A stretch of 14,506 nt of DNA from a virus (Duplodnaviria > Heunggongvirae > Uroviricota > Caudoviricetes): IMG/VR virus record IMGVR_UViG_2554235189_000015, positions 1 to 14,506 of that record. One strand, written 5' to 3'. The notes below the pieces were generated by a model. The model worked only from the letters and a program-made list of their open reading frames with translations, was not told the origin of the DNA and did no database searches. Each line of letters opens with the position of its first letter. Position 1 is the stretch's first letter. A program made the translations under genes and the position numbers. Positions 1 through 14,506 of the stretch are shown piece after piece.

Positions 1-75
1 CTGGGTCATATCCCTCCGGCAGAAGCAGAAAAAGCTTATTATGCTTCCATCAGAAACGATGATCTGGCAGCCTGA
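1..75 (+). CDS. 3-prime end of an upstream gene (partial; by synteny probably the portal protein)
   Basis: The frame beginning at position 1 reads LGHIPPAEAEKAYYASIRNDDLAA and stops at TGA 73-75, using common enterobacterial codons. The other two frames are rich in rare codons (ata, cgg, agg). Portal precedes scaffold in P22-like phages. The protein identity is inferred from position only. Confidence 0.35.
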   Translation: MGHIPPAEAEKAYYASIRNDDLAA

Positions 76-158
76 GTTCACAGATAAAACACTCTCCAGG
101 AAAACCGGGGCGGTTCACACAGCCTGAGAATGAAAGCCAGGATGACAACGGTAAAGAG

Positions 159-914
159 GTGGCAACTGAGCCTGAAAAAACCGAAGAGACACCAGAAGAT
201 TACGCCTTGCGTATTGGTGATGAAGAAATTCAGCTTAACGCTGACGATGATGATCACATTGACGGGAAACCTGCACCGCAATGGGTGAAAGATCTTCGCA
301 AAGGCTTCAAAGAAACACAGAAAGAAAACCGTGAGTTGCGCCGCCAGCTTGAGGAAGCATTAGCCAAGCCTGCGGAACATCAGCAACCACAACCAGACGC
401 TATTCCACCAAAACCGACTCTTGAGTCGTGTGATTATGACGAACAGGCGTTTGAACAGGCATTGACTGATTGGCATGAGAAAAAAGGCCGTGTCGAACAG
501 CAGCAGCAACAAAAACTACGTCAGCAACAGGAATACCAACAGCGTTTCCAGCAAAGGGTAGAAGCGCATAAACAACGGGCAGCCAAACTTCCTGTGAAAG
601 ATTATCAGGAAATGGAGGCCATTGTTCTTAGTGAGCTACCACCAATTCAGCAGGAAATCATCATTCACTGTGCAGACGAAGGCTCTGAACTACTCGCCTA
701 TGGCTTAGGTAAGAGCCAGCAATTACGCCAGCGTGTAGCCGCTGAGACAGATCCAATTCGCGCAGCATTCCTCTTGGGGCAGATTAGCAAACAGGTAAGC
801 CTTGCTCCAAAACCAAAGAAAGCCATCAAGCCAGAGCCGGAAGTACGTGGTGGCGGTGCTGATGCGAAACAAGACGAATTCAACAAATTATGCCCCGGCG
901 CAAAAATCGAATAA
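159..914 (+). CDS. Scaffolding protein (P22 gp8-like)
   Basis: 251-aa ORF with an acidic N-terminus and a C-terminal segment (LPVKDYQEMEAIVLSELPP...LLAYGLGKSQQLRQ...LAPKPKK) that resembles the recalled coat-binding C-terminal region of P22 scaffold. Lies directly upstream of the coat gene. The start is uncertain: GTG at 159 is the only canonical start in a frame that is open back to position 63. Confidence 0.8.
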   Translation: MATEPEKTEETPEDYALRIGDEEIQLNADDDDHIDGKPAPQWVKDLRKGFKETQKENRELRRQLEEALAKPAEHQQPQPDAIPPKPTLESCDYDEQAFEQALTDWHEKKGRVEQQQQQKLRQQQEYQQRFQQRVEAHKQRAAKLPVKDYQEMEAIVLSELPPIQQEIIIHCADEGSELLAYGLGKSQQLRQRVAAETDPIRAAFLLGQISKQVSLAPKPKKAIKPEPEVRGGGADAKQDEFNKLCPGAKIE

Positions 915-925
915 GGAAAAGATAA

Positions 926-2197
926 ATGCCTAACAATCTCGACAGTAACGTCAGTCAAATCGTTCTGAAAAAATTCCTTCCTGGTTTTATGTCAGATTTA
1001 GTTCTGGCGAAAACCGTAGACCGTCAGTTGCTGGCAGGTGAAATCAACTCCAGCACTGGCGATAGCGTTAGCTTTAAACGTCCGCATCAATTCTCATCCC
1101 TCCGTACTCCCACTGGTGATATTTCGGGGCAAAATAAAAACAACCTGATCTCAGGTAAAGCTACGGGGCGTGTAGGTAACTACATCACTGTTGCTGTTGA
1201 ATATCAGCAACTGGAGGAAGCGATCAAGCTTAACCAACTGGAAGAAATTCTCGCGCCGGTTCGCCAGCGAATCGTTACCGACCTTGAAACAGAGCTTGCT
1301 CACTTCATGATGAATAACGGTGCGTTGTCACTTGGTAGCCCCAATACTCCAATCACCAAATGGTCTGATGTTGCGCAGACGGCATCTTTCCTGAAAGACC
1401 TCGGCGTTAATGAAGGTGAAAACTATGCTGTAATGGATCCATGGTCTGCACAGCGACTTGCTGATGCGCAGACTGGTTTGCACGCTTCAGATCAATTGGT
1501 TCGTACTGCATGGGAGAATGCGCAGATTCCAACCAATTTTGGCGGCATTCGCGCACTGATGTCTAATGGGCTTGCCTCTCGTACGCAGGGGGCATTTGGC
1601 GGAACACTGACAGTCAAAACACAGCCAACTGTTACCTATAACGCAGTTAAAGACTCATACCAGTTCACTGTAACATTGACCGGAGCGACAGCCAGCGTTA
1701 CAGGTTTTCTGAAAGCTGGTGATCAGGTTAAATTCACCAATACCTACTGGCTGCAACAGCAGACCAAACAGGCGTTGTATAACGGAGCCACACCAATTAG
1801 CTTCACTGCAACGGTTACTGCTGATGCTAATTCAGACAGCAGTGGCGATGTGACGGTTACGCTTTCTGGTGTTCCGATTTATGACACTACAAACCCGCAG
1901 TACAACTCTGTAAGTCGTCAGGTAGCGGCAGGCGATGCCGTATCTGTAGTAGGCACTGCTAGCCAGACAATGAAGCCAAACCTGTTCTATAACAAGTTCT
2001 TCTGTGGACTTGGCTCTATCCCACTGCCGAAACTGCACAGTATTGATTCTGCTGTTGCAACATATGAAGGTTTCTCCATCCGCGTACATAAATACGCAGA
2101 TGGCGATGCCAACGTGCAAAAAATGCGCTTTGACTTACTGCCTGCATATGTGTGCTTTAACCCTCACATGGGCGGTCAGTTCTTCGGTAATCCGTAA
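926..2197 (+). CDS. Major capsid (coat) protein, Sf6-type length (423 aa)
   Basis: ATG at 926 preceded by AAGGAAAAG (913-921). 423-aa ORF directly after scaffold and followed by a hairpin terminator. The N-terminus does not match the recalled P22 gp5 sequence, so this is called Sf6-like on position and size only. Confidence 0.85.
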   Translation: MPNNLDSNVSQIVLKKFLPGFMSDLVLAKTVDRQLLAGEINSSTGDSVSFKRPHQFSSLRTPTGDISGQNKNNLISGKATGRVGNYITVAVEYQQLEEAIKLNQLEEILAPVRQRIVTDLETELAHFMMNNGALSLGSPNTPITKWSDVAQTASFLKDLGVNEGENYAVMDPWSAQRLADAQTGLHASDQLVRTAWENAQIPTNFGGIRALMSNGLASRTQGAFGGTLTVKTQPTVTYNAVKDSYQFTVTLTGATASVTGFLKAGDQVKFTNTYWLQQQTKQALYNGATPISFTATVTADANSDSSGDVTVTLSGVPIYDTTNPQYNSVSRQVAAGDAVSVVGTASQTMKPNLFYNKFFCGLGSIPLPKLHSIDSAVATYEGFSIRVHKYADGDANVQKMRFDLLPAYVCFNPHMGGQFFGNP

Positions 2198-2201
2198 TAA
2201 C

Positions 2202-2228
2202 AAGGGGCTTCCGCCCCTTTTATGTTTT
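2202..2228 (+). terminator. Rho-independent terminator/attenuator downstream of the coat gene
   Basis: Perfect 7-bp stem AAGGGGC (2202-2208) / GCCCCTT (2213-2219) with loop TTCC, followed by the T-rich tract TTATGTTTT, immediately after the coat stop codon. Confidence 0.7.
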
Positions 2229-2239
2229 AAGGAAACAAT

Positions 2240-2425
2240 ATGGATCGCATGAGTGTATTCCTTGCCGCAGATAACGAATCCGGACATGTACAGGCCGTTA
2301 TCGCAGAAAAAGACTTCCAGTTTTTCGAAAAGTTGGGCTTTGTTGCCTCAGTTGATGAATTGAAACCGACCAGTAAGCGAGGTCGTAAGGCGGCAGACAA
2401 TGGCAACAGTACTGACAAAGGGTGA
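2240..2425 (+). CDS. Small hypothetical protein between coat and gp4-like genes
   Basis: 61-aa ORF with ATG at 2240 preceded by AAGGAAACAAT. Its 3-prime end overlaps the next gene start by 26 nt. Function unknown. Confidence 0.5.
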   Translation: MDRMSVFLAADNESGHVQAVIAEKDFQFFEKLGFVASVDELKPTSKRGRKAADNGNSTDKG

Positions 2426-2882
2426 GATCGTCCTTTTTGCGCTTCGTAAGTTTGCTATTGCTTCTAATGCATCGCTGACTGATGTTGAGCCGCAATCAAT
2501 TGAAGATGGTGTAAATGATCTGGAAGATATGATGTCCGAGTGGATGATTAACCCCGGCGACATTGGTTACGCTTTCGCAACTGGAGATGAGCAGCCATTA
2601 CCAGATGATGAGTCTGGTCTTCCAAGAAAATACAAACACGCAGTAGGCTATCAGTTATTGCTGAGAATGCTATCTGATTACAGCCTTGAACCAACTCCGC
2701 AAGTTCTCAGTAACGCCCAACGCTCATTTGATGCCTTGATGACCGACACTCTGGTTGTTCCTTCAATGCGACGACGTGGAGATTTTCCTGTAGGACAGGG
2801 TAATAAATATGACGTGTTCACATCTGACCGATATTATCCAGGCGATCTCCCTCTGATTGATGGCGATATCCCAAACGCATAG
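2400..2882 (+). CDS. Head completion / tail adaptor protein (P22 gp4-like)
   Basis: The N-terminus ([28 protein letters not shown]) matches the recalled P22 gp4 N-terminus ([28 protein letters not shown]). 160 aa versus about 166 aa in P22. AAGG lies 9 nt upstream of the ATG. Confidence 0.9.
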   Translation: [160 protein letters not shown]

Positions 2883-2890
2883 GTGAATAA

Positions 2891-4309
2891 ATGCCTATTC
2901 AGCAACTTCCGCTTATGAAAGGTGTCGGCAAAGACTTTAGAAACGCCGACTATATCGACTATCTGCCAGTGAATATGTTGGCTACACCCAAAGAAATCCT
3001 TAACAGCAGCGGATATCTTCGCTCATTCCCTGGCATTGCCAAACGTTCTGATGTGAACGGTGCATCTCGCGGCGTCGAGTACAACATGGCGCAGAATGCT
3101 GTTTATCGCGTATGTGGTGGCAAGCTGTACAAAGGAGAAAGCGAGGTCGGTGATGTTGCCGGAAGTGGTCGCGTATCAATGGCGCATGGTCGAACATCTC
3201 AGGCGGTAGGCGTTAATGGTCAACTGGTAGAGTATCGCTATGATGGCACGGTTAAAACCGTCTCAAACTGGCCTGCAGACAGCGGATTCACTCAGTATGA
3301 GTTAGGTTCGGTTCGTGACATTACGCGCTTGCGCGGGCGTTATGCGTGGTCAAAAGACGGCACTGATTCATGGTTTATCACTGACCTTGGAGACGAATCA
3401 CATCCTGACCGTTACAGCGCACAATATCGTGCCGAGTCTCAGCCTGACGGCATCATCGGCATAGGAACATGGCGAGACTTCATCGTCTGCTTTGGTTCAT
3501 CGACGATTGAATATTTCTCCCTGACAGGTGCAACCACCGTTGGTGCCGCGTTGTATGTCGCACAGCCATCACTGATGGTGCAGAAAGGGATTGCCGGAAC
3601 CTACTGCAAAACGCCGTTTGCTGATTCGTATGCGTTCATCAGCAATCCGGCAACAGGTGCGCCGTCTGTATATATCATCGGCTCCGGTCAGGTATCACCA
3701 ATCGCCAGCGCGAGCATTGAGAAAATACTACGCTCCTACACTGCTGATGAACTGGCTGATGGCGTAATGGAATCGTTGCGCTTTGATGCGCATGAGTTGC
3801 TGATTATCCATCTTCCGCGCCACGTCCTCGTGTACGACGCATCTTCAAGCGCCAATGGTCCGCAATGGTGTGTGTTGAAAACTGGCTTGTATGACGATGT
3901 GTACCGCGCTATCGACTTCATTTACGAAGGCAATCAGATAACGTGCGGCGATAAGCTGGATTCCGTGACCGGGAAATTGCAATTCGACATCAGCAGCCAG
4001 TACGACAAGCAACAGGAACACCTGCTGTTTACTCCGTTGTTCAAAGCGGATAACGCCAGAGTTTTCGACCTTGAAGTTGAATCTTCAACTGGAGTTGCGC
4101 AGTATGCTGACCGCCTTTTTCTCTCTGCAACCACTGACGGCATCAATTACGGACGTGAGCAGATGATTGAGCAGAATGAACCGTTCGTTTACGACAAACG
4201 CGTTTTGTGGAAGCGAGTAGGGCGCATCAGGAAAAATGTCGGCTTCAAATTGCGCGTTATCACGAAGTCACCTGTCACTCTGTCTGGTTGCCAGATAAGG
4301 ATTGAGTAA
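2891..4309 (+). CDS. Tail hub protein (P22 gp10-like)
   Basis: 472 aa, the same length as P22 gp10, with near-identity to the recalled gp10 N-terminus ([46 protein letters not shown]). AGGTGA SD upstream of ATG 2891. Confidence 0.95.
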
Positions 4310-5157
4310 TGGCGGATTCGAATCTCAATGTGCCGGTAATCATTCAGGCTACACGGCTCGACACATCAGTCCTTCCACGCAATATCTTCTCGCAGTCGTA
4401 TCTGCTTTACGTTATCGCACAGGGTACTGATGTTGGTAACGTGGCGAACAAGGCCAACGAGGCCGGACAGGGCGCTTATGACGCACAAGTCAGGAACGAT
4501 GAGCAGGATGTGATTCTGGTCGATCACGAAATTCGACTGGCATCAGCTGAAGCGAAGATTCAGGACCACGAAACAAGGATCACTAACGCAGAATCGGCGA
4601 TAGTCGGCCTTGATTCCCGATTAACGACAGCAGAAAACGATATTGATTATCTGACTGATGAAGTTATCGCCATTCAAAACACGCTTTCAGACCATGAAAC
4701 GCGCATTGATGCTCTGGAGTATGCCACTACTCGCAAAAAGTCAGAGGTTGTTTACTCTGGCGTATCTGTAACCATCCCGACAGCGCCGACCAACCTTGTT
4801 AGCCTGCTGAAAACGCTCACGCCGTCATCCGGGACGTTGGCACCATTCTTCGACACTGTTAACAACAAGATGGTTGTGTTCAACGAGAACAAAACCTTGT
4901 TCTTCAAGCTGTCGATCGTCGGGACGTGGCCCAGCGGAACCGCCAACAGGTCAATGCAGCTAACCTTTTCCGGCTCTGTTCCTGACACGTTGGTCAGCAG
5001 TCGTAATGCGGCGACAACAACCGACAACATCCTGTTAGCTACGTTCTTCAGCGTGGATAAAGACGGCTTTCTTGCCACAAATGGCAGTACGTTAACCATT
5101 CAGTCAAATGGTGCGGCGTTTACTGCCACAACCATCAAGATAATCGCGGAGCAGTAA
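4309..5157 (+). CDS. Tail needle protein (P22 gp26-like N-terminus with a C-terminal knob extension, Sf6-type)
   Basis: The N-terminus ([43 protein letters not shown]...[13 protein letters not shown]) matches the recalled gp26 N-terminus. At 282 aa it is longer than P22 gp26 (about 233 aa), with a beta-rich C-terminal domain. The start overlaps the gp10 stop (TAATG). Confidence 0.9.
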
Positions 5158-5612
5158 TGATTCAGTTCAAACCAACGCGAAACATCGACCTGATCGAAGC
5201 CGTGGGAAATCACCCCGACATTATCGCCGGGAGCAACAACGGTGATGGATACGACTACAAGCCTGAATGCCGTTACTTCGAGGTGAACGTGCACGGGCAG
5301 TTCGGCGGCATTGTTTACTATCAGGAGATTCAGCCTTTGACCTTTGATTGCCACGCCATGTACCTGCCAGAGGTTCGTGGATTCAGCAAGGAAATCGGGC
5401 TGGCGTTCTGGCGATACATTCTGACTAACACCACCGTTCAGTGCGTCACATCGTTCGCTGCGCGCAAATTCCGCCACGGTCAGATGTACTGCGCAATGAT
5501 TGGCCTTAAGCGAGTAGGAACCATCAAGAAATACTTCAAAGGCGTGGATGACGTGACTTTTTACAGCGCAACACGCGAAGAACTAATCGACTTCCTGAAT
5601 CACGGGAGATAG
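5157..5612 (+). CDS. P22 gp14-like virion protein
   Basis: 151-aa ORF in the syntenic position between the tail needle and the ejection proteins. Start overlaps the previous stop (TAATG). Assigned by position and size only. Confidence 0.7.
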   Translation: MIQFKPTRNIDLIEAVGNHPDIIAGSNNGDGYDYKPECRYFEVNVHGQFGGIVYYQEIQPLTFDCHAMYLPEVRGFSKEIGLAFWRYILTNTTVQCVTSFAARKFRHGQMYCAMIGLKRVGTIKKYFKGVDDVTFYSATREELIDFLNHGR

Positions 5613-5614
5613 CC

Positions 5615-6307
5615 ATGTTATATGCATTTAAGCTGGGCAGAAAACTGCGCGGCGAGGAACCTTATTGCCCTGAAAAGGGTGGGAAAGGTGGCAGTTCTGA
5701 TAAAAGCGCAAAGTATGCCGCAGAAGCTCAGAAGTATGCAGCAGACCTGCAAAATCAGCAGTGGCAGACGATCATGAAAAACCTTGCTCCGTTCACGCCT
5801 CTTGCGGAGCAGTATGTTAACCAGTTGCAGAATCTTTCCAGTTTAGAAGGTCAGGGGCAGGCACTTAATCAGTATTACAACTCTCAGCAGTATAAAGACC
5901 TTGCAGGTCAGGCGCGTTACCAGAGTCTTGCTGCTGCGGAGGCGACGGGTGGACTTGGTTCGACAGCCACAAGCAATCAACTGGCTACGATCGCGCCGAC
6001 ACTCGGTCAGTCTTGGTTATCAAACCAGATGAGCAATTACAACAATCTGGCAAACGTTGGGCTTGGTGCGCTGCAAGGTCAGGCAAACGCCGGGCAGACG
6101 TACGCCAACAACATGAGCAGCATTGCACAGCAAAGCGCAGCACTTGCCGCTGCTAATGCCAATAAACCATCAAGTCTTCAGACTGCAATTAGCGGTGGCA
6201 CGTCTGGTGCGATTGCCGGTGCAGGTCTTGCCAGCCTTTTGGGAACATCAACGCCTTGGGGCGCTGGCATTGGTGCTGGTATCGGATTGCTTGGCTCGTT
6301 GTTTTAA
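5615..6307 (+). CDS. Ejection (internal virion) protein, P22 gp7-like
   Basis: 230 aa (P22 gp7 is about 229 aa). N-terminus MLYAFKLGRKLRGEE, with a Gly/Ala-rich hydrophobic C-terminus. GGGAGA SD 5 nt upstream of the ATG. Confidence 0.8.
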   Translation: MLYAFKLGRKLRGEEPYCPEKGGKGGSSDKSAKYAAEAQKYAADLQNQQWQTIMKNLAPFTPLAEQYVNQLQNLSSLEGQGQALNQYYNSQQYKDLAGQARYQSLAAAEATGGLGSTATSNQLATIAPTLGQSWLSNQMSNYNNLANVGLGALQGQANAGQTYANNMSSIAQQSAALAAANANKPSSLQTAISGGTSGAIAGAGLASLLGTSTPWGAGIGAGIGLLGSLF

Positions 6308-6316
6308 GGGGTAATC

Positions 6317-7783
6317 ATGGCTACTTGGCAAGGAACAAACGGCGGATTGTTGGCTGGTATCGGCGTCGTCAACTCAAACGCTCCGAGCGTAAATGACATC
6401 GGCAATACGCTTCAGCTTATCAGGCAGAACAATGATATTGAGCGTTCAGGCGCTAACAATGTTGGGCTGACTGCTTTGCAAGGTCTTTCAGGTATTGCGG
6501 GTGTTTTTCAGCAGGAAAAGCAGGCTCAGCGGCAGAAAGAATTTCAGCAGGCATACGCTAATGCTTATGCGTCTGGTGATCGCGGTGCTTTGCGTCAGTT
6601 GGCTACTCAATATCCAGACCAGATTGAATCCGTTCGTAAAGGCATGGGATTCATTGATGAAGACCAGCGCAATTCTATAGGCACCTTAGCGGCTGGCGCA
6701 CGCCTTGCGTCATCGTCTCCAGAAGCAATGCAATCATGGCTGCAAAACAACGCCAAGGAACTGACTCGCGTCGGTGTTGACCCTAACAGCGTTGCTCAGA
6801 TGTATCAGCAGAATCCTTCAGGATTTGGTGAGTTTGTTGATCACCTTGGGATGGCTGCGCTTGGTCCGATTGATTACTTCAATGTTCAGGACAAGATGGC
6901 TGGTCGGGATATTGAGCGTGGCGAGTTGGCAGAGACGATTCGCAGCAATCATGCTGGAGAAGCACTTCAGGCGAGAGGGCAGGATATTAGCCGAGCAAAT
7001 GCGTTAACGTCAGCATATGCACCAACAGCCGCAATGCAGAATTACAATCAGTACGCGCAAATGTTAAAGGCAGATCCAGATGGTGCAGCGGCATTTGCGG
7101 CAGCGGCGGGAATTAATCCCAATGCTAAGAAATTACTTAAGGTTGAAACCAATCCTGATGGCTCGGTAACTAAGTATTACACCGATGGCAGCGAGGAAGC
7201 CGGAAAACTAAACCAACCTATATCTGGTGATGGCATTAAACCAATTAGCTTGCCACAAGCGCAAAGCATCATAGATAAGGCTAATGAGGGTTCCAAGAAG
7301 GCGGCAGGATTTGCTTTGCGATTAAAAGATTCAATGGACTCAATGAATCAGCTTAGTAAAAGCATTGACCCTAAGCGAGTTGCATTAATAAATCGCTCTC
7401 TTGGTGATGGGACTATTGCAAATTTAAGCCTATCACCAGCGGAGCAGCAATACATGGTAAATGCGAGAGACGCCTTGTATGCAATTTTGCGCCCAGAAAC
7501 AGGTGCAGCAATTACTCTGCCAGAGATGCAGGAGTATTCCAAAATGTACCTGCCTCAGCCTGGTGATTCCAAGGCTGCTACTGAAACAAAAATGCGAAAA
7601 ATGCAGGGCCAATATAACTCATTACGTGGTCAGTCTGGTCGCGTTTATGATGCTTTGGTGGTTTCAAGTGCTGCAAATAGTCAACAACAGAGCAATAGCC
7701 AACAACCGACAAATACCCAACAGCAGCAGAGTCAATCCGGATCATATACCTCAAAATCAGGCATTCAATTTACGGTGGAATGA
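6317..7783 (+). CDS. Ejection protein, P22 gp20-like
   Basis: 488 aa in the syntenic position (P22 gp20 is about 471 aa). AAGGGG SD upstream. Q/S-rich low-complexity C-terminus. Confidence 0.75.
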
Positions 7784-9627
7784 TGAAAGTAACTGCAAAC
7801 GGTAAGACATTTACCTTTCCTGATGGTACGAGCACCGAAGATATTGGCACCGCCATTGATGAGTATTTTGCTGGTCAGGCTGTTCAGCAACAAACAGTTA
7901 ATCAGGCCAATAATGCACCAACACGGGAAGAACCATCATTGATGCAACAAGCTGGTGATTGGCTCACTGGTGGTCAAAGTGCAGGGAAAATTGCGGAACA
8001 GGCTGGTCGTGGTCTGGTAAACATACCATTTGACGTATTGCAGGGCGGCGCAAGTCTGATTAATGCAATCAGTCAGGGGCTTGGTGGACCCAAGGTTTTG
8101 GATGATGTTTATCGTCCAGTAGACAGACCGACAGACCCCTACGCGCAAGCCGGTGAAACAATTGGTGGGTATTTAGTTCCAGGAGTTGGAACGGCAGGAA
8201 GCATGGCTATTGGATCACTGGCAGAGGCCGCAAATCAGAAAGGCGATTTCGCACAAAATGCAGCTAAAAATGCCGGAGTTAACCTTGCCGCTCAGGGTGT
8301 TCTTTCCGCAGCAGCAAAGGGAATAGGGCGTGGAATAACGGCTATAAAAGGTGATATTGCGCCAGAAGTGGCGAAGAAAATTGCCACATCAGAATCGATG
8401 GGCGTGACACCAATGACATCTGATGTTATCCCGCCGAAAAATGCTTTTACTCGCGGCCTAACTCAGGATGCCGAGGGGGCTTTGCTCGGGACAGGCTCAA
8501 AGCGAGCGGAGCAATATGCAACGCGTAGTAAGCTGGTAAGTAATTATTTTGACCGTTTTGGTGAGTACAACCCTGATGATGTGGTGAAATCTCTTACCAC
8601 CACGTTAAGGGGGCGGAAGGATGCCGCTGGCGCTGTTATCAATGACGTCACCAATAAAATGGGTAATGCCGCAGTTGATACCACAAATACCATGAATGCT
8701 CTGAATACAGCGATCGCAAGACAGGAACGGCTTGGGACGTCTGCCAATCAAAGCCTGCTTACATCCTTGCGTAACCTACGTGAAGAATTAGCAAACCCTG
8801 CAACTGATTTGGATGTTACGTTTGATCTCTTGCGTCAGCACAGAACAGCATTTAGATCTAATGTTCAGGGAGATGCTATGGTCTTCCCCAACCAGGCAAA
8901 AGCAGCTACCAATATGGTAGAGAATGCAATGTCAAAAGACCTTCGTAACGCAGTTGCTAAAAACCTCGGTGCATCAGACGCAGCAAAATACCTTAAAGCA
9001 AATTCCGATTATGCAAACGTTTATAATAAGGTGCTTAATAAAAACATTGCCAACAAGCTCAACAAGGCAAGCAGTGAAGCCAGTCCTGAACTTATAAATA
9101 CCGTTGTATTAAGCAGAAAACCATCTGACGTGAAACGAATCTGGAGCGCACTGGATGATAAGGGGAAAGATGCTATGCGTGCAGCTTACGTCAGCAAAAT
9201 AGCGGAAAAGGCCGGGGACTCTCCAGCCAAGTTCATCACTGAAGTTAATAAGCTGAAATCTCAGTCAGGCGGTGAAATTTACAACACTATTTTTTCTGGA
9301 AAGCACATGAAAGAGCTTGATGCTCTTCATGAAGTTCTACAGCAAACAGCAAGGTCAGACACCGCAAATGTAGTAACTCAGACGGGGCAATCGCAAGCCA
9401 ACAGGATAAGGACGATTGGCGCAACTGCGACCCTTGGCGTATCAATGGGGCTTGAGGCTGGTTTTGGTGCAATGATGCGCTTGTATGAGTCCAAAGCAGC
9501 AAGGAATGCTCTCTTACGCCTGGCAAACACTAAAACTGGAACGCCAGCTTATGAAAGAGCGCTAAATAATGCTGCAAATGCGATACGCCCTATACTTTCA
9601 AGCCAAATTACAGCAGAACAGCAATAA
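7780..9627 (+). CDS. Ejection protein, P22 gp16-like
   Basis: 615 aa in the syntenic position (P22 gp16 is about 609 aa). Start overlaps the gp20-like stop (ATGATGA), consistent with translational coupling. Confidence 0.75.
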
Positions 9628-9641
9628 AAGATAAGATATAA

Positions 9642-10127
9642 CTACCTGATATTACTGCTACTGTTGCATGTTACCGTGTTTCCAAATCCTGAATTGCAGT
9701 TTGTATATGTGTCAACGCGTGTTGGGTAAGGTTGAGTTATAACAGGCTGGCGCGCTTTTTGCTCGATCGCTTGCATTGTGTTTACAGCCTGATAATTCAA
9801 TAAAGCCTGCTGGAATGCTTGGCTTTGCGCTATTTGTTGGGCTTGCTCTTGGCTTTGTAATTGAACATAAAGATTTTGAAGCTCAAGTCTTGCCTGTGCG
9901 TCACTTATCTTACCTTCATCAACACCTTGCCCGAGCATCTTTGCGGCAAGGACATACAGCTTAGGTGTTGGTGCAGACGCCATGCGTGAGTCGTTCTTCA
10001 CACTGGCATCAAGGCAATTAGCCATATCGCTAAGCTTTTGATAGCGTTGTTCGCAACTTGCTTGATAGTCACTTACTTTTGCGCATCCAACCAGAAGAAG
10101 CGGGATAATTAACAGTGATTTTTTCAT
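9642..10127 (-). CDS. Phage-encoded lipoprotein of unknown function (candidate superinfection-exclusion factor)
   Basis: Start assigned to the internal Met at 10127: MKKSLLIIPLLLVGC is a classic signal peptide with lipobox LVGC, and a strong SD (AAGGAGAG) lies about 8 nt upstream. The track start at 10163 has no SD. The mature protein is Gln-rich with four further cysteines. Occupies the position of sieA in P22 (between gene 16 and mnt, opposite strand to the late genes). Confidence 0.75.
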   Translation of the reverse strand: MKKSLLIIPLLLVGCAKVSDYQASCEQRYQKLSDMANCLDASVKNDSRMASAPTPKLYVLAAKMLGQGVDEGKISDAQARLELQNLYVQLQSQEQAQQIAQSQAFQQALLNYQAVNTMQAIEQKARQPVITQPYPTRVDTYTNCNSGFGNTVTCNSSSNIR

Positions 10128-10197
10128 ATGGCTAACTCTCCTTAGTTTTTCACAGGATATCATGAAGGAAATGCCATTTTAGCCGGAAACTAGATTT

Positions 10198-10464
10198 CTA
10201 TGTTTCCTTTTTATTATTGCTATACATGGTCTTAAGCGTTTCAAAAACCATTTTCTTAACCATATCAGATTGTTGTTCTGCCATACGCTCTGCATCGTCA
10301 ATGTAAACGGATGCAGAGCTTTGTTTAGCCAATGATTCTTCAATCGCTGCAATTATCTCTGAGTTCAGCGACCTGTTATTCATCTTCGCACGCTGCTTAA
10401 TTTTCGCGTGGAGTTCATGCGGAAGTCTCAAGTGAAACTGCGCCTCGTCGTATTTGCTGTACAT
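10198..10464 (-). CDS. mnt: Mnt-like ribbon-helix-helix repressor
   Basis: Clear similarity to the recalled P22 Mnt sequence: FHLRLPHELHAKIKQRAKMNNRSLNSEI versus FNFRMPMEVREKLKFRAEANGRSMNSEL, and DDAERMAEQQSDMVKKMVFETLKTMY versus NDAERLADEQSELVKKMVFDTLKDLY. Start placed at the internal Met (10464, 88 aa, GGTGAGG about 9 nt upstream), which aligns with the Mnt N-terminus. The alternative start at 10497 would give 99 aa. Confidence 0.85.
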   Translation of the reverse strand: MYSKYDEAQFHLRLPHELHAKIKQRAKMNNRSLNSEIIAAIEESLAKQSSASVYIDDAERMAEQQSDMVKKMVFETLKTMYSNNKKET

Positions 10465-10585
10465 CCTTGATGCCTCACCAGTTGGGTGGAATGGCATCGT
10501 AACCTACTGGATAAATACTCAATAGTACCATTTCTGTATGCAATCACATCATGGTTGCATCATATCATTCGTCTGGAGCAATGAA
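10465..10585. promoter_or_regulatory. Divergent intergenic region between mnt-like gene and tailspike; candidate promoter/operator region
   Basis: About 120 bp of non-coding DNA between divergent genes. Contains the inverted repeat ATGCAA-N11-TTGCAT (10538-10560), a CACC-N5-GGTG element (10476-10488) and a GGAG SD (10575-10578) for the tailspike. No confident -35/-10 pair could be assigned by eye. Confidence 0.3.
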
Positions 10586-12652
10586 ATGTCAGATATCACC
10601 GCAAATGTTGTGGTAAGCATGCCTTCGCAACTCTTCACTATGGCGCGTTCTTTTAAAGCGGTTGCCAATGGCAAAATTTATATCGGTAAAATTGACACTG
10701 ATCCGGTAAATCCTGAAAACCAGATTCAGGTTTATGTGGAAAACGAAGACGGTTCTCACATTCCTGTTTCGCAACCAATCATCATTAACGCTGCTGGTTA
10801 CCCGGTATATAACGGGCAGATTGCCAAGTTCGTAACTGTGCAAGGCCATTCTATGGCTGTATATGATGCGTATGGTGCGCAGCAGTTCTATTTTCCTAAT
10901 GTGCTGAAGTATGACCCTGACCAACTAAGACAGGAGTTAGATGGTGTTGGTGGGGTTAATTTAGTAAATGGGGCATTACATGGTGCCATGGATTCAGATC
11001 CAAATGTTGGTTTTAAAATCACCACATCCTCAGGTGAGATTTACGAATATGCTCCGGGAATTACAGGTCTTGCCGATGGGTTTTCGGTATCAGCATCACA
11101 GTTATATTTAACAAGGAATGGCCTATCTTATAAATACTCTTCACCTCATAACACACTGGTTTGGCCATCTCAGTATATCGATACGAGTGCTGATGCGAAA
11201 TATTCAATTGAATCTATTATGGCGCACGGATTGAATGTGGACCTTAACGGAACTACAGTTAAAGCCAGCACCATTAATATTACGAAAGATTTGATTAATG
11301 GTGAAATTGTTGCTATCGGAGATGAAGGATCATTTATAACAGTAAACTCATGCATGCTTAACAATATTAAAGTTAACTGCAATATGATGGCAATTAGAAG
11401 GCCTGTTCATATCAAAACAGGGGCTGTTAATCCAGTAGTTAAGAATGTTGATGTTTTTGATAGTAATGGTTCTCAACTAACTTATGGTATTTTCATAGAT
11501 GCAAATTCTGTATTGAATTTTGTCGTTGATAACATATCAATACATAATATTACCACCATTGGAAATGGTATTCAGGGTGATGTAATTGGGCCATGTCGAG
11601 GGATTCTTGTAGGAACGGCACTTGATCCAGTACCATCAAATGATGATGAGGTATCAAGTGGAGTTATAAGTAACGTAAGGATTTACAAGCTAAACCCTTG
11701 GGAAGATGCTGATGGTGTTGTTATTCAGATTTACAACTCATCATCAAATATGCTCAGCGGGAAGAAAATAAAGGTTGATGGCGTTTATACTTACAATGCA
11801 CTTAAGCGAGCAGTCAAAGTTCAGGCCAATGATGTTACAGTAACAAATGTATTTGCGGTTTGTGATGACGCCTCAGCAACTAACCCTATGTATAGTTGTG
11901 TTAGTGTTTATGGTAGTTCCTGTGTTGTTCGTGGTGTTAGTGGGCGAGGAAGGATTGGCAATGGTGTTGATTCATCTGATGGGTTCAATACTATCAGTGA
12001 TGTTTATCTTAAGACGACAGCAACCTATGAGCTAAGCGCAGGTCTACAGATAACTTCCGGGCAGGTAAACGCGAATAACATTCACTCTGAAGGATCAAGA
12101 TACATAGTCGCAATTCGGGCAGTTAATAACACAACACCGTATGTAAATATTAATGGCATATATGGGCAAGGTTATGACGGGGCGATTTTGTTAGAAATCA
12201 GATACGGATTTAATATTGGTAATGTTTACTTAAGTGATATTTCAGTATCAAGTTCAAATCCCACAAGGTCTTCATTCTTCTTTGATATATTATCAGGTGG
12301 AAGTATATCTCTGATCAGCGTGTCAGACGTCAAGAGAATCAGTCAGGCATTTAACGGAGCAGATATAAACATTTCTGGTGGGGTTGCAAAAGCTATTGTT
12401 AAAAATTCAGTTTTTGAGAGTGGTTCGTCAAGCGTTGGTGTATCAATGACAACTGGTACTTTAGTTGCATCAAATATATCAGCACAAAGTAAATCTTATG
12501 CTGTCAACGCTGTACAAACCACAAATTCACTTATAAATAACATTGATGGAATCGTTAGGGTTGATAGCACAACCAACAGTAATGTCGGCCTTTACAGAGG
12601 GATTACCTCTGTTGGGACTAACACAGGACTGAAAACTGTTTTCTATCAATAA
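10586..12652 (+). CDS. Tailspike protein: P22-type head-binding N-terminal domain plus divergent receptor-binding/depolymerase domain (predicted beta-helix)
   Basis: The N-terminus from Met 10586 ([57 protein letters not shown]...[13 protein letters not shown]...NVLKYDPDQ) matches the recalled P22 gp9 head-binding domain. GGAG lies 7 nt upstream. The remaining roughly 570 aa are AT-rich and rich in Asn/Ser/Val/Ile/Gly, as in parallel beta-helix depolymerases. The track start at 10538 adds 16 non-homologous residues and was not used. Confidence 0.9.
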
Positions 12653-13204
12653 TTATATATAACCTTTTGATGTTTTATATGATGTTATCTTGGCAGGGAC
12701 GCCAGCAATAGTGCAATTTCCATCTTTAAAATCTTTGTTAACGACTGCATTCGCGCCTATTGCACAATTGTCACCTATAACTATCTTTCCGTAAATTTTT
12801 GCTCCAGGACCAATGTAGCAATTATCACCAATTACAGGGGATTCAAGTCCTGCTCCAGCTGATGTGCCAATATTCGTACCTACATGAATTCGGCAATTTG
12901 CACCTATCCTGGCTCCTGCGTTAACAACTATGTTACCATAATGTGGTATTGATAACCCTGGACCAAAGGTATTGATAGGTATTGAAAATCCAAGTTTCAT
13001 TTGAATTTTGCGTAACCTAAGTCTTGTAATCAGAATTAAAACTTTATTTCCTTTGCAATTAGTAAGATACTCCAACCTCCTTAGCAATCTAAGGAATCTC
13101 CATATATCGTTGAATATTATATTTTTTAACCTTGACCCCTGAAGCCTCATAGCCTTTTCGTCAAGGAGAAGGTATGACTTGTAATCTTCCTTGCTGCTTA
13201 TCAT
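12653..13204 (-). CDS. Hexapeptide-repeat (left-handed beta-helix) acetyltransferase, CysE/WcaB/NeuO-like; candidate lysogenic-conversion enzyme
   Basis: The C-terminal half has tandem hexapeptide motifs typical of LbH acyltransferases (NAGARIGANCRIHVGTNIGTSAGAGLESPVIGDNCYIGPGAKIYGKIVIGDNCAIGANAVVN). Strongly AT-rich. Lies between the tailspike and int/att, where P22 has gtrABC and Sf6 has oac. Start is uncertain: Met at 13204 is preferred (184 aa, weak SD); the track start at 13258 adds an odd hydrophobic leader. Confidence 0.8.
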   Translation of the reverse strand: MISSKEDYKSYLLLDEKAMRLQGSRLKNIIFNDIWRFLRLLRRLEYLTNCKGNKVLILITRLRLRKIQMKLGFSIPINTFGPGLSIPHYGNIVVNAGARIGANCRIHVGTNIGTSAGAGLESPVIGDNCYIGPGAKIYGKIVIGDNCAIGANAVVNKDFKDGNCTIAGVPAKITSYKTSKGYI

Positions 13205-13348
13205 TCTATGCTCGCCAGAAATGTGAATAGGTGTAAAGATTAAGAAAAACCTCAACATTTTGCAAGATTAAGGTTAATCATAGTAAATGACAGTTGATCT
13301 GAATGCGCCTTAAGACTACTGTGTATGCATGCAGTGATGTAGGTGGCA
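13205..13348. promoter_or_regulatory. Spacer between acetyltransferase and int 3-prime end: candidate attP region / acetyltransferase promoter
   Basis: In P22-like genomes attP lies between the conversion locus and the 3-prime end of int. This AT-rich spacer contains a 9-bp direct repeat AAGATTAAG (13236-13244 and 13264-13272) and a related TTAAGA at 13310-13315. No tRNA-like core could be recognised by eye. Confidence 0.25.
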
Positions 13349-14506
13349 CTACCCCTCCTTTTCATCAAGCCAATCCGCCCACCACTGCATCATTTCTCTG
13401 CGCTTATCGAGATACTGAGCATGGTTGTAAATTCCACGCACAGAACCGCCGTTGGCATGTGCCAGTTGCACTTCAATGGCGTCGGCAGGCCATTCGTGCT
13501 CGTTCATAATTGTGCTGAATTCATGCCTGAATCCGTGACCGCTTTCCAGACCCTCATAGCCGATTTGTTTGATCACAAGCAATACCGCGTTCTCGCAGAT
13601 TGGCTTCTTCTTATCGTTGCGCCCGGCAAAAACAAACTCTGATACTGGTTTGGTGATTGAGCTTAGCGTAGTGAGAAGTTCAACCACCTGGTCTGACATA
13701 GGAACCACATGAATTTTGCGTCCCTTCATCACACTGGCGTCGATGGTGATAATCCTGTTTTCAAAATCGACGTTCTTCCATAGCATGGAACGAAGCTCTT
13801 TCGTTCTTAGGGCTGTGTAGCGTAAAATTTTAGTAGCAATGAGCGATACGATACTTCCTGAAAATGTTGCAAGTGCTTTGTTGAATGCCGGGATCTGGTC
13901 GGCAGGTAAAAATGGGAAGTTCTTCTTGCGGTATCCCTTCATGGCGTCAGCAAGGTCAGGTGCCGGGTTATATTTAGCCCTACCAGTGACAATAGCGTAA
14001 CGGAAAACCTCGCCGCATCTTCTGCGGGCTTTGTTGGCTCGCTCCATTGCACCGCGATCTTCAAATCTGCGGATTACTTCCAGCAGTTGCATCGGCTCAA
14101 TATCCTGAATCTCAAGGCCGCCGATGATGGGTAAAATGTCGTCATCAAACATTTTGGCAAGTTCAGTTGCATAGCCTACTGACCAGACTTGCTTCTTGTG
14201 CTCGTACCATTCCTTGTAAATCGCACTAAATGAATTGTTGTTAGACGAAGCCTTTTTCGCTTTTACCGGATCGATGCCAACCGAGATGTCTTTCCTCGCA
14301 GTCCATGCTTTATCCCTTGCCTCCTGCAAAGTCATAAGTGGATATTTTCCGACGGTCAGGATTTTCTCCTTACCGTCAATCTTGTAGCGAAGCTGCCATA
14401 CCTTTTTCCCGGATACAGGGACATAAAGGTACAGGCCATTACCATCGAGAAGGCGGTATGGTTTTTCTTTCGGCTTTGCTGCTTCAATCTGCTTAACGGT
14501 GAGCAT
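13349..14506 (-). CDS. int: Tyrosine integrase (P4/P22 family), apparently full length
   Basis: 385-aa ORF. The N-terminus (MLTVKQIEAAKPKEKPYRLLDGNGLYLYVPVSGKKVWQLRYKIDGKEKILTVGKYP) is the typical arm-binding domain of P4-type integrases. The C-terminus carries the catalytic region (HGFRHEF ... LAHANGGSVRGIYNHAQY). The ATG is the reverse complement of the last three bases of the window. Confidence 0.92.
   Translation of the reverse strand: MLTVKQIEAAKPKEKPYRLLDGNGLYLYVPVSGKKVWQLRYKIDGKEKILTVGKYPLMTLQEARDKAWTARKDISVGIDPVKAKKASSNNNSFSAIYKEWYEHKKQVWSVGYATELAKMFDDDILPIIGGLEIQDIEPMQLLEVIRRFEDRGAMERANKARRRCGEVFRYAIVTGRAKYNPAPDLADAMKGYRKKNFPFLPADQIPAFNKALATFSGSIVSLIATKILRYTALRTKELRSMLWKNVDFENRIITIDASVMKGRKIHVVPMSDQVVELLTTLSSITKPVSEFVFAGRNDKKKPICENAVLLVIKQIGYEGLESGHGFRHEFSTIMNEHEWPADAIEVQLAHANGGSVRGIYNHAQYLDKRREMMQWWADWLDEKEG

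Follow-up and report, generated by a model that had tools for sequence, protein, structure and literature searches.

SieA of phage P22 excludes P22-like phages broadly, whatever the type of ejection protein (E-protein) they carry, and both the passage of P22-like DNA across the periplasm and its block by SieA are only partly understood. Entry can also be blocked from the outer membrane: Cor and Llp are phage-encoded outer-membrane lipoproteins which do so by binding the host receptor, and TraT is a comparable outer-membrane lipoprotein encoded by a plasmid. Here we describe a predicted lipoprotein of 161 amino acids (aa) encoded in a 14,506-nucleotide (nt) stretch of viral DNA (IMG/VR record IMGVR_UViG_2554235189_000015, positions 1 to 14,506; hereafter the window), which covers the end of a P22-like (Lederbergvirus) prophage from Escherichia coli at which the late genes lie. 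The original prediction, made from these letters alone, held that the gene lies where P22 carries sieA, between gene 16 and mnt on the strand opposite the late genes, and proposed it as a candidate superinfection-exclusion or envelope-modifying factor. The P22 arrangement it described agrees with the P22 record (BK000583), in which the order past gene 16 is sieA (opposite strand, with an annotated promoter of its own), mnt terminator, orf59a and mnt. Prophage lipoproteins at the loci of entry genes are of a known kind, and the one described here resembles none of them in sequence or predicted fold; we regard it as a good, if unproven, candidate phage-exclusion or envelope factor.

The relationship of the gene to the sieA slot was assessed at 87 loci, comprising the window and 86 others from IMG/VR, phage records and genomes. 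Wherever the flanking sequence is long enough, the lipoprotein gene is convergent with, and abuts, the gene 16 homolog, the two stop codons being separated by a 14-nt gap in the window, and at 16 of the 87 loci orf59a and a P22-type mnt are present as well. The upstream DNA of these 16 loci is approximately 93% identical to that of P22 overall and approximately 98-99% identical over the last 600 nt. For the loci L085, L030 and L059 the identity to P22 (approximately 98-99%) was followed from orf59a across the mnt terminator and PsieA, the annotated promoter, up to CTAAGGAG, past which divergence is complete, with sieA in P22 and the lipoprotein open reading frame (ORF) in L085, L030 and L059. 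A whole-region comparison with P22 showed homology breaking off on the left 6 nt short of the sieA start; on the other side it returns within gene 16, about 30 nt ahead of the stop codon, at 69% identity. As homology ends at the Shine-Dalgarno sequence (SD), in these 16 relatives the sieA ORF has been exchanged for the lipoprotein ORF, with promoter and ribosome-binding site (PsieA and its SD) unchanged. The 85 bp upstream of sieA are enough for functional SieA expression (PMC10883804). The two proteins are unrelated, as had been proposed: they share no sequence similarity, the FxRYPxEAxxFNK motif of SieA is absent from the lipoprotein, and the latter does not have three or more transmembrane helices. 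A tblastn search with P22 SieA, for which the sequences of types B and C were not used as queries, gave no match in the window or the lipoprotein loci, and no multi-transmembrane ORF lies between gene 16 and the tailspike gene at the lipoprotein loci.

A near-identical lipoprotein ORF with its SD was found behind at least seven different upstream sequences, the junction always falling just 5' of CAAAACTAAGGAG. Among the 87 loci the window type, with mnt directly upstream, is the commonest (41 loci), and the PsieA, Gally and O104 types account for 16, 12 and 8, respectively. The window keeps the last ~35 nt of the sieA leader, its putative -35 element, the terminator and orf59a having been lost. 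The gp16 of L085, L030 and L059 is 99% identical to that of the window, and the P22 immI segment present in these E. coli-type prophages (arc, mnt, orf59a, terminator and PsieA) has 93-99% nucleotide identity to Salmonella phage P22 (L094), a similarity that points to recent cross-genus exchange. The interval between mnt and the lipoprotein gene is, moreover, a hotspot at which other small proteins, exported or membrane-bound, are encoded, among them a 104-aa secreted protein whose gene overlaps mnt by 4 nt in strain C227-11 of serotype O104:H4 (L096, 3512-3826), a 153-aa protein with a single transmembrane segment in Providencia (L010, 7519-7980) and an 81-aa membrane protein in L044.

The ORF that had been reported at 9642-10163 on the minus strand is real, as confirmed in the ORF list and in the sequence, and its likely start is the ATG at 10125-10127, which yields 161 aa with the N-terminus MKKSLLIIPLLLVGC/AKV... 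The strong SD ascribed to it is AAGGAG at 10138-10143, 10 nt upstream of this ATG, and the same start is annotated by RefSeq in E. coli 2014C-4587, LF82 and O104:H4. The upstream in-frame ATG at 10163 was rejected as a start, since it has no SD and the N-terminal extension is not conserved; in relatives with unrelated leaders the in-frame extension is absent. The GenBank record of phage Gally places the lipoprotein start at this upstream ATG, for a product of 172 aa, and this start was probably called in error. With regard to the lipobox that had been claimed, the PROSITE pattern PS00013 fits residues 5-15 (LLIIPLLLVGC) and two Lys occur among the first seven residues; the lipobox Cys occurs without exception in the 32 close homologs and the pattern is present in 223 of the 250 family proteins of at least 100 aa. 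In E. coli, a lipoprotein without Asp at position +2 is sorted to the outer membrane. Across the family the +2 position is occupied by A, T, V, S, G, Q or M and in no case by Asp, and because of this the lipoprotein is predicted to be located in the outer membrane. The ratio of nonsynonymous to synonymous substitution rates (dN/dS) is 0.03-0.05 for unsaturated pairs (dS 0.2-0.7, maximum 0.69), from which it follows that this is a protein-coding gene under strong constraint. The gene is intact at 80% coverage or more in 182 of 186 carrier E. coli genomes.

A first AlphaFold2 model, with 32 close homologs as input, was poor (predicted local distance difference test, pLDDT, of 63), whereas a second model of the mature protein to which distant relatives had been added attained a mean pLDDT of 86.9. 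In this model a compact helical domain starts two residues past the lipidated Cys; it is the part of the protein that is common to 248 distant representatives. The final helix of the domain runs for approximately 50 residues (76-125), pLDDT being below 80 past about residue 115. The Gln-rich coiled coil that had been anticipated here stands in its first part, as 15 of the 47 residues from 84 to 130 are Gln, while a coiled coil is no more than possible, given a weak heptad periodicity (hydrophobic residues at 10 of 15 a/d positions). The C-terminal hairpin is modelled as two strands at low confidence (pLDDT of approximately 60-70), and its motif is kept in the close relatives and in many distant ones. 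To call the C-terminus Cys-rich was an overstatement: two Cys (144 and 154) do fall in the last 18 residues, but the remaining two (25 and 38) are N-terminal. All four are invariant or almost so, Cys25 and Cys38 are placed on neighbouring helices, and two conserved Cys pairs would be consistent with an oxidising compartment. The sole hydrophobic stretch is the signal peptide, and the mature part (146 aa) is modelled as a soluble helical domain.

The family was not recognised in the original prediction, and our searches bear this out, as PHROG 6067 is its only relative among the collections consulted (Pfam, NCBIfam, PADLOC, PDB and BFVD being the others). The PHROG match is full length (E=1.6e-110, residues 1-161 on profile positions 1-161), and RefSeq holds counterparts under the names hypothetical protein or lipoprotein (WP_000749291, WP_000749287 and WP_000749286), with 96-100% nucleotide identity, or 92.8% in LF82. 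The gene is thus already in databases, PHROG 6067 being a family to which no function is assigned. Pfam gave no family at E<=0.1 and PADLOC-DB none at E<=1, a sequence profile search of the PDB returned coiled-coil or signal-peptide noise only, and a Foldseek search of the model against BFVD gave nothing under E=0.38; the sole NCBIfam match, to GspK, was dismissed as spurious, with 18.9 bits against a cut-off of 130. In the literature on sieA, on lipoproteins of P22-like phages and Lederbergvirus, and on exclusion involving ejection proteins the protein appears only as hypothetical, and its exact substitution for sieA, like its function, was found in no published study. Close homologs form 94 clusters, one E. 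coli cluster alone comprising 871 member sequences; they derive from Escherichia, Citrobacter, Serratia, Klebsiella, Cronobacter, Yersinia, Pectobacterium, Morganella, Providencia and Tatumella, and all are labelled hypothetical or lipoprotein. Conservation was established in Escherichia, Salmonella, Serratia, Klebsiella, Yersinia, Proteus, Providencia and Tatumella. The gene is carried by 186 of 5426 complete E. coli genomes (approximately 3.4%), including the O104:H4 outbreak strain C227-11, enterohaemorrhagic O26:H11 strains and the adherent-invasive E. coli (AIEC) strain LF82, with two copies in four of the 186, and by five sequenced phages (Gally, vB_EcoP-720R6, VSe13, MS2 LVA and Proteus phage Brookers).

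Among 1.84 billion representatives, a profile search recovered 248 related clusters, of which 96 had E<1e-10. The majority are lipoproteins of 125-190 aa with the same N-terminal domain, in many cases together with the C-terminal T-x-C...GN-x-V-x-C hairpin; none of the 248 representatives is a named protein or carries a Pfam domain. The genomic contexts of the distant homologs are mixed and partly chromosomal, among them a polysaccharide-export region, a TIR/STAND neighbourhood and an orphan of the core genome in Pectobacterium, and those examined gave no hint of function. The homolog in Pectobacterium peruviense (L098, 7438-8411) has 41% identity, is without the C-terminal hairpin and is an orphan between dsbB and ycgN. 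It adjoins a gene for a DNA polymerase III theta-like protein, and in Proteus phage Brookers a theta-like gene (L002, 1513-1806) is found beside the tailspike gene as well; the chromosomal pair may be a remnant of the end of a Brookers-like phage.

The gap between the mnt stop and the lipoprotein start is, as had been stated, exactly 70 nt (10128-10197), and the claim that no terminator intervenes also holds, since the spacer hairpin lacks a U-tract and no terminator-like site is present. A sigma-70 consensus scan of the spacer detected no promoter, and by eye there is a lone TAAAAT for which a matching -35 element is absent. Upstream of mnt a promoter-like site was noted, the -35 element of which falls within the start of the tailspike gene, and in O104:H4 and Providencia relatives tight mnt-X-lipoprotein operons occur. 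On these grounds co-transcription with mnt, with the lipoprotein gene as the distal member, is a plausible and parsimonious model for the window. The RNA of the spacer region (10120-10215, minus strand) folds better than shuffled sequences (z=-2.57), with one hairpin 3' of the mnt stop and a second stem in which UUUCCUU pairs with the AAGGAGA of the SD; the latter may couple or limit translation of the lipoprotein. An Rfam scan of the window returned nothing.

That the gene is expressed in lysogens, which the prediction had presumed, is supported by published RNA-seq of an ortholog. Gally is prophage 1 of E. coli LF82, and its GALLYPH_13 (LF82_138) is 97.5% identical to the window protein. In lysogeny broth (LB) the normalised reads of LF82_138 were 78 and 62 (70) against a prophage median of 15.6, i.e. 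4.5-fold, making it the second-highest gene of the Gally prophage in this medium behind the C2 repressor (PMC9928086, S1 Table). The 5-fold cut-off by which the authors defined morons corresponds to 78.1 (PMC9928086), and Gally was written of as without morons because LF82_138 falls slightly below it. Expression as log2 of fragments per kilobase per million (fpkm)+5 was 6.1 in LB, approximately 8.0 in Dulbecco's modified Eagle medium (DMEM), 10.3 in macrophages at 1 h and 8.6 at 6 h, and that of the adjacent gene 16 was 3.6-4.1 in all conditions (PMC9928086). Relative to LB the ortholog is thus up approximately 4-fold in DMEM and approximately 18-fold in macrophages at 1 h, and as gene 16 stays low throughout it is transcribed independently of the late operon. 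Expression in a window-type lysogen is inferred from this ortholog. In Gally a divergent lipoprotein gene, GALLYPH_14, lies between mnt and GALLYPH_13, and the promoter context differs from that of the window. GALLYPH_14 (L001, 3447-3866; L013, 5620-6039) encodes a second, unrelated lipoprotein of 139 aa (MKRIIGVVAGAILLSGC...); in LF82 its log2 fpkm is 10-11 in DMEM and macrophages, above that of GALLYPH_13, and it was likewise not called a moron.

Envelope-level superinfection exclusion is our leading hypothesis for the function, because of the ORF-for-ORF substitution of sieA and the precedents of Cor, Llp and TraT, and we put its likelihood somewhat short of even. According to this proposal the ORF and its SD would constitute a prophage moron module seated in the sieA expression slot and made in the lysogen, as the distal gene of the mnt transcript in the window and from the P22 sieA promoter in some relatives. 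The product would be exported, lipid-modified at Cys15 and sorted by default to the outer membrane, with the predicted compact, disulfide-bonded helical domain directly beneath the lipid anchor and the long Gln-rich helix, a Pro-rich linker and a disulfide-stapled beta-hairpin reaching into the periplasm. Acting from the outer-membrane or periplasmic side, it might mask a conserved host envelope component that is needed after O-antigen binding or, alternatively, obstruct assembly of the gp7/gp20/gp16 trans-envelope channel, so that incoming P22-like phages would adsorb and fail to deliver their DNA. In its boldest form, which we consider rather doubtful, the proposal would make the lipoprotein the first of a new class of podovirus injection blockers anchored in the outer membrane; with a rigid helix and the stapled hairpin hanging into the periplasm, it would intercept or mis-template the gp7/gp20/gp16 channel, or a host factor the channel needs, as a functional counterpart of SieA. 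Were that so, an unrelated protein in the slot of SieA but in the other membrane would offer an independent handle on the ejection-protein channel, and the wider family (248 cluster representatives, many of them chromosomal) would be a reservoir of envelope-level blockers of phage entry.

The lipoprotein, itself almost invariant, is found alongside three or more types of gp16, which are 32-100% identical to the gp16 of the window, and alongside several gp20 and gp7 types, and an Sf6-type needle knob, present in 52 of 73 lipoprotein loci and absent in 21, shows no linkage to it. No co-variation with gp16, gp20, gp7 or needle type that would signal self-compatibility was seen; given such diverse partners, the gene behaves as a freely reassorting module unmatched to one ejection apparatus, which fits a broad, SieA-like blocker and equally a role unrelated to phage entry. 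Several observations weigh against exclusion. A shared slot need not mean a shared function, other exported morons occupy the interval, and the Pfam, PHROG, PDB, PADLOC and BFVD searches revealed no sequence or fold similarity to known exclusion proteins. The strong purifying selection is unlike that of an arms race with phage proteins and argues for a conserved host partner, and distant homologs also reside in non-phage chromosomal contexts. Up-regulation in DMEM and macrophages points equally to host adaptation, and expression in the window extends only by inference from LF82, whose data come from the Gally-type upstream arrangement. Finally, the carriage of two copies by 4 of the 186 genomes means that exclusion, if any, is not absolute.

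A role in host fitness, as in virulence-type lysogenic conversion, was therefore weighed alongside. Here the lipoprotein would alter the envelope, affecting resistance to serum, complement or antimicrobial peptides, intramacrophage survival, vesiculation or stress tolerance, with no direct phage exclusion; lambda Bor/Iss and the serum-resistance activity of TraT are models for such a role. We hold it to be rather unlikely, though it is the main rival to exclusion. The induction of the ortholog over LB, ~4-fold in DMEM and ~18-fold in macrophages at 1 h, is in its favour, but the whole right end of Gally is induced on both strands, the tailspike included, so the effect may be regional de-silencing and not specific regulation. 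Similarly, the presence of the gene in the pathogenic lineages O104:H4 C227-11, O26:H11 and AIEC LF82 may be a sampling bias. Purifying selection and the chromosomal orphan homologs suggest that it interacts with a conserved host structure, and other exported morons share the interval, where the divergent GALLYPH_14 is co-induced; against this, there is no similarity to Bor/Iss, TraT or known virulence lipoproteins, and the precise replacement of sieA under its promoter would be more naturally read as a functional substitution.

The protein might instead be produced chiefly upon infection or induction and serve the lytic cycle, as does T5 Llp, by neutralising a host envelope component that would inactivate virions on debris, or by aiding release or ejection, its expression in the prophage being incidental. 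The llp gene adjoins that of the T5 receptor-binding protein, just as the present gene adjoins those of the ejection proteins and the tailspike, and the high spontaneous induction of Gally in LF82 cultures means that induced cells could account for some of the RNA-seq signal. The gene nevertheless lies on the strand opposite the late operon, is expressed about 5-fold up to about 70-fold above neighbouring late genes which are at background in the same samples, and has its promoter and operon setting in common with mnt and sieA, both genes of lysogeny, which makes this explanation improbable. Still less probable is an orphan periplasmic or outer-membrane immunity lipoprotein against a colicin, a bacteriocin or an effector of type VI secretion or contact-dependent inhibition, carried as prophage cargo, what favours it being weak bundle matches only. 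That the ORF is spurious, non-functional or a decaying remnant could be argued from its want of functional and family annotation and from the LF82 study not having called it a moron, a matter of falling slightly below the 5-fold cut-off; a dN/dS of 0.03-0.05, intactness in 182 of 186 genomes, conservation across eight genera and transcription effectively exclude it. Between exclusion and host adaptation, either would give a function to a sizeable family of orphan lipoproteins, and the macrophage induction raises the alternative that an overlooked host-adaptation factor is at hand. As the gene is common, and is also found in prophages of Salmonella, Serratia, Klebsiella, Yersinia, Proteus and Providencia, it could have a bearing on competition between prophages and on host range in phage therapy.

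The layout of the window is summarised in the table. The nearest complete genome is that of E. coli 2014C-4587, the lipoprotein gene of which is 100% identical to that of the window, and in RefSeq the mnt start of a near-identical genome is Met12 (10464). The window mnt is an orphan, arc and ant being absent. An inverted repeat, ATGCAATCA/TGGTTGCAT, at 10538-10560 (I3) in the mnt-tailspike spacer could be a candidate Mnt operator. Between tailspike and integrase lies a gene (12653-13258, minus strand) for a 201-aa hexapeptide-repeat (LbH) acetyltransferase, whose NCBIfam matches (EpsC, WbbJ and WcaB) are all under their cut-offs; the surrounding G+C content is 34-41% as against approximately 48% in the late genes. 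It is likely an O-antigen or serotype-conversion moron of cytoplasmic type, and in the nearest genome a membrane 'acyltransferase family' gene replaces it at the same place.

Table. Features of the window, with positions in nt and strand where assigned.
Feature	Position	Strand	Remarks
Coat gene	926-2197		Late gene
gp4/gp10 homologs	After coat gene		
Tail needle	4309-5157		Sf6-type C-terminal knob
gp14	Between tail needle and gp7		
gp7 ejection protein	5615-6307		
gp20 ejection protein	6317-7783		
Gene 16 homolog (DNA ejection protein)	7780-9627	+	phrog_770 'DNA transfer protein', E=2.2e-279
Lipoprotein precursor coding sequence, 161 aa	9642-10127	-	Stop codon 9642-9644; PHROG 6067 family
C-terminal beta-hairpin, Cys144 and Cys154	9651-9713	-	T-x-C-x3-[FY]GN-x-V-x-C-x-S
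Gln-rich stretch of long helix, residues 84-130, and start of Pro-rich linker	9738-9878	-	
N-terminal helical domain, residues 16-100	9828-10082	-	AlphaFold2 pLDDT 91-98; Cys25 and Cys38 invariant
Signal peptide and lipobox (MKKSLLIIPLLLVG-C15)	10083-10127	-	PS00013 match; predicted lipidation at Cys15, +2 Ala
mnt-lipoprotein spacer	10128-10197	-	SD 10138-10143; 3' ~35 nt homologous to P22 sieA leader
mnt (Arc/Mnt-family repressor)	10198-10497	-	Pfam Arc, E=1.1e-14; Repressor_Mnt, E=3.9e-12
Promoter-like site upstream of mnt, CTGACA-17-AATGAT	10564-10592	-	Consensus match only; candidate source of mnt-lipoprotein transcript
Tailspike (head-binding domain)	True start ATG 10586		Mechanical ORF starts 10538; conserved N-terminus begins at 10586
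Hexapeptide acetyltransferase, then integrase	Beyond tailspike		

In comparison with described systems, an o-spanin of the Rz1 type was rejected, as the gene lies between gene 16 and mnt and not in a lysis cassette, and the mature product of 146 aa has a folded helical domain; Gally has a separate Rz (GALLYPH_51). Ltp of Streptococcus phage TP-J34 is likewise a prophage lipoprotein, which blocks DNA entry after adsorption by binding the tape measure protein, but it acts in a Gram-positive host, has another fold and gave no match, and its class of target is absent in podoviruses. TraT of the F plasmid and lambda Bor/Iss are outer-membrane lipoproteins of mobile elements which are expressed in the carrier state, and exclusion and/or serum resistance, the activities they represent, are the two leading hypotheses here; the present protein differs from them in size and predicted fold and has no corresponding Pfam or NCBIfam match. 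Cor (phi80/N15/HK022) and Llp (T5) resemble it in being small phage lipoproteins sorted to the outer membrane and encoded beside genes for host recognition or entry, and the proposed action on a conserved host envelope component, which would be compatible with the purifying selection, is a further likeness. They are, however, of approximately 60-80 aa, and their target is FhuA, a protein not used by P22-like phages. The match to the Cor family (phrog_1119, E=0.035) is confined to residues 1-31, the signal peptide, the sequence match to Llp (PDB 8a60, E=1.7) is to the signal peptide only, and no fold match was found in the PDB or BFVD. SieA itself is an inner-membrane protein with three to four transmembrane segments (types A-C), no signal peptide and a cytoplasmic FxRYPxEAxxFNK motif, whereas the lipoprotein is a predicted cleaved, lipid-anchored soluble domain, probably of the outer membrane. 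Yet neither is tied to one type of ejection protein, and the two occupy the same slot, convergent with gene 16 and on the mnt strand, are expressed from the prophage (for the lipoprotein, in the case of its ortholog), have the same promoter and SD in the 16 lipoprotein-bearing relatives, and never occur together at the loci examined.

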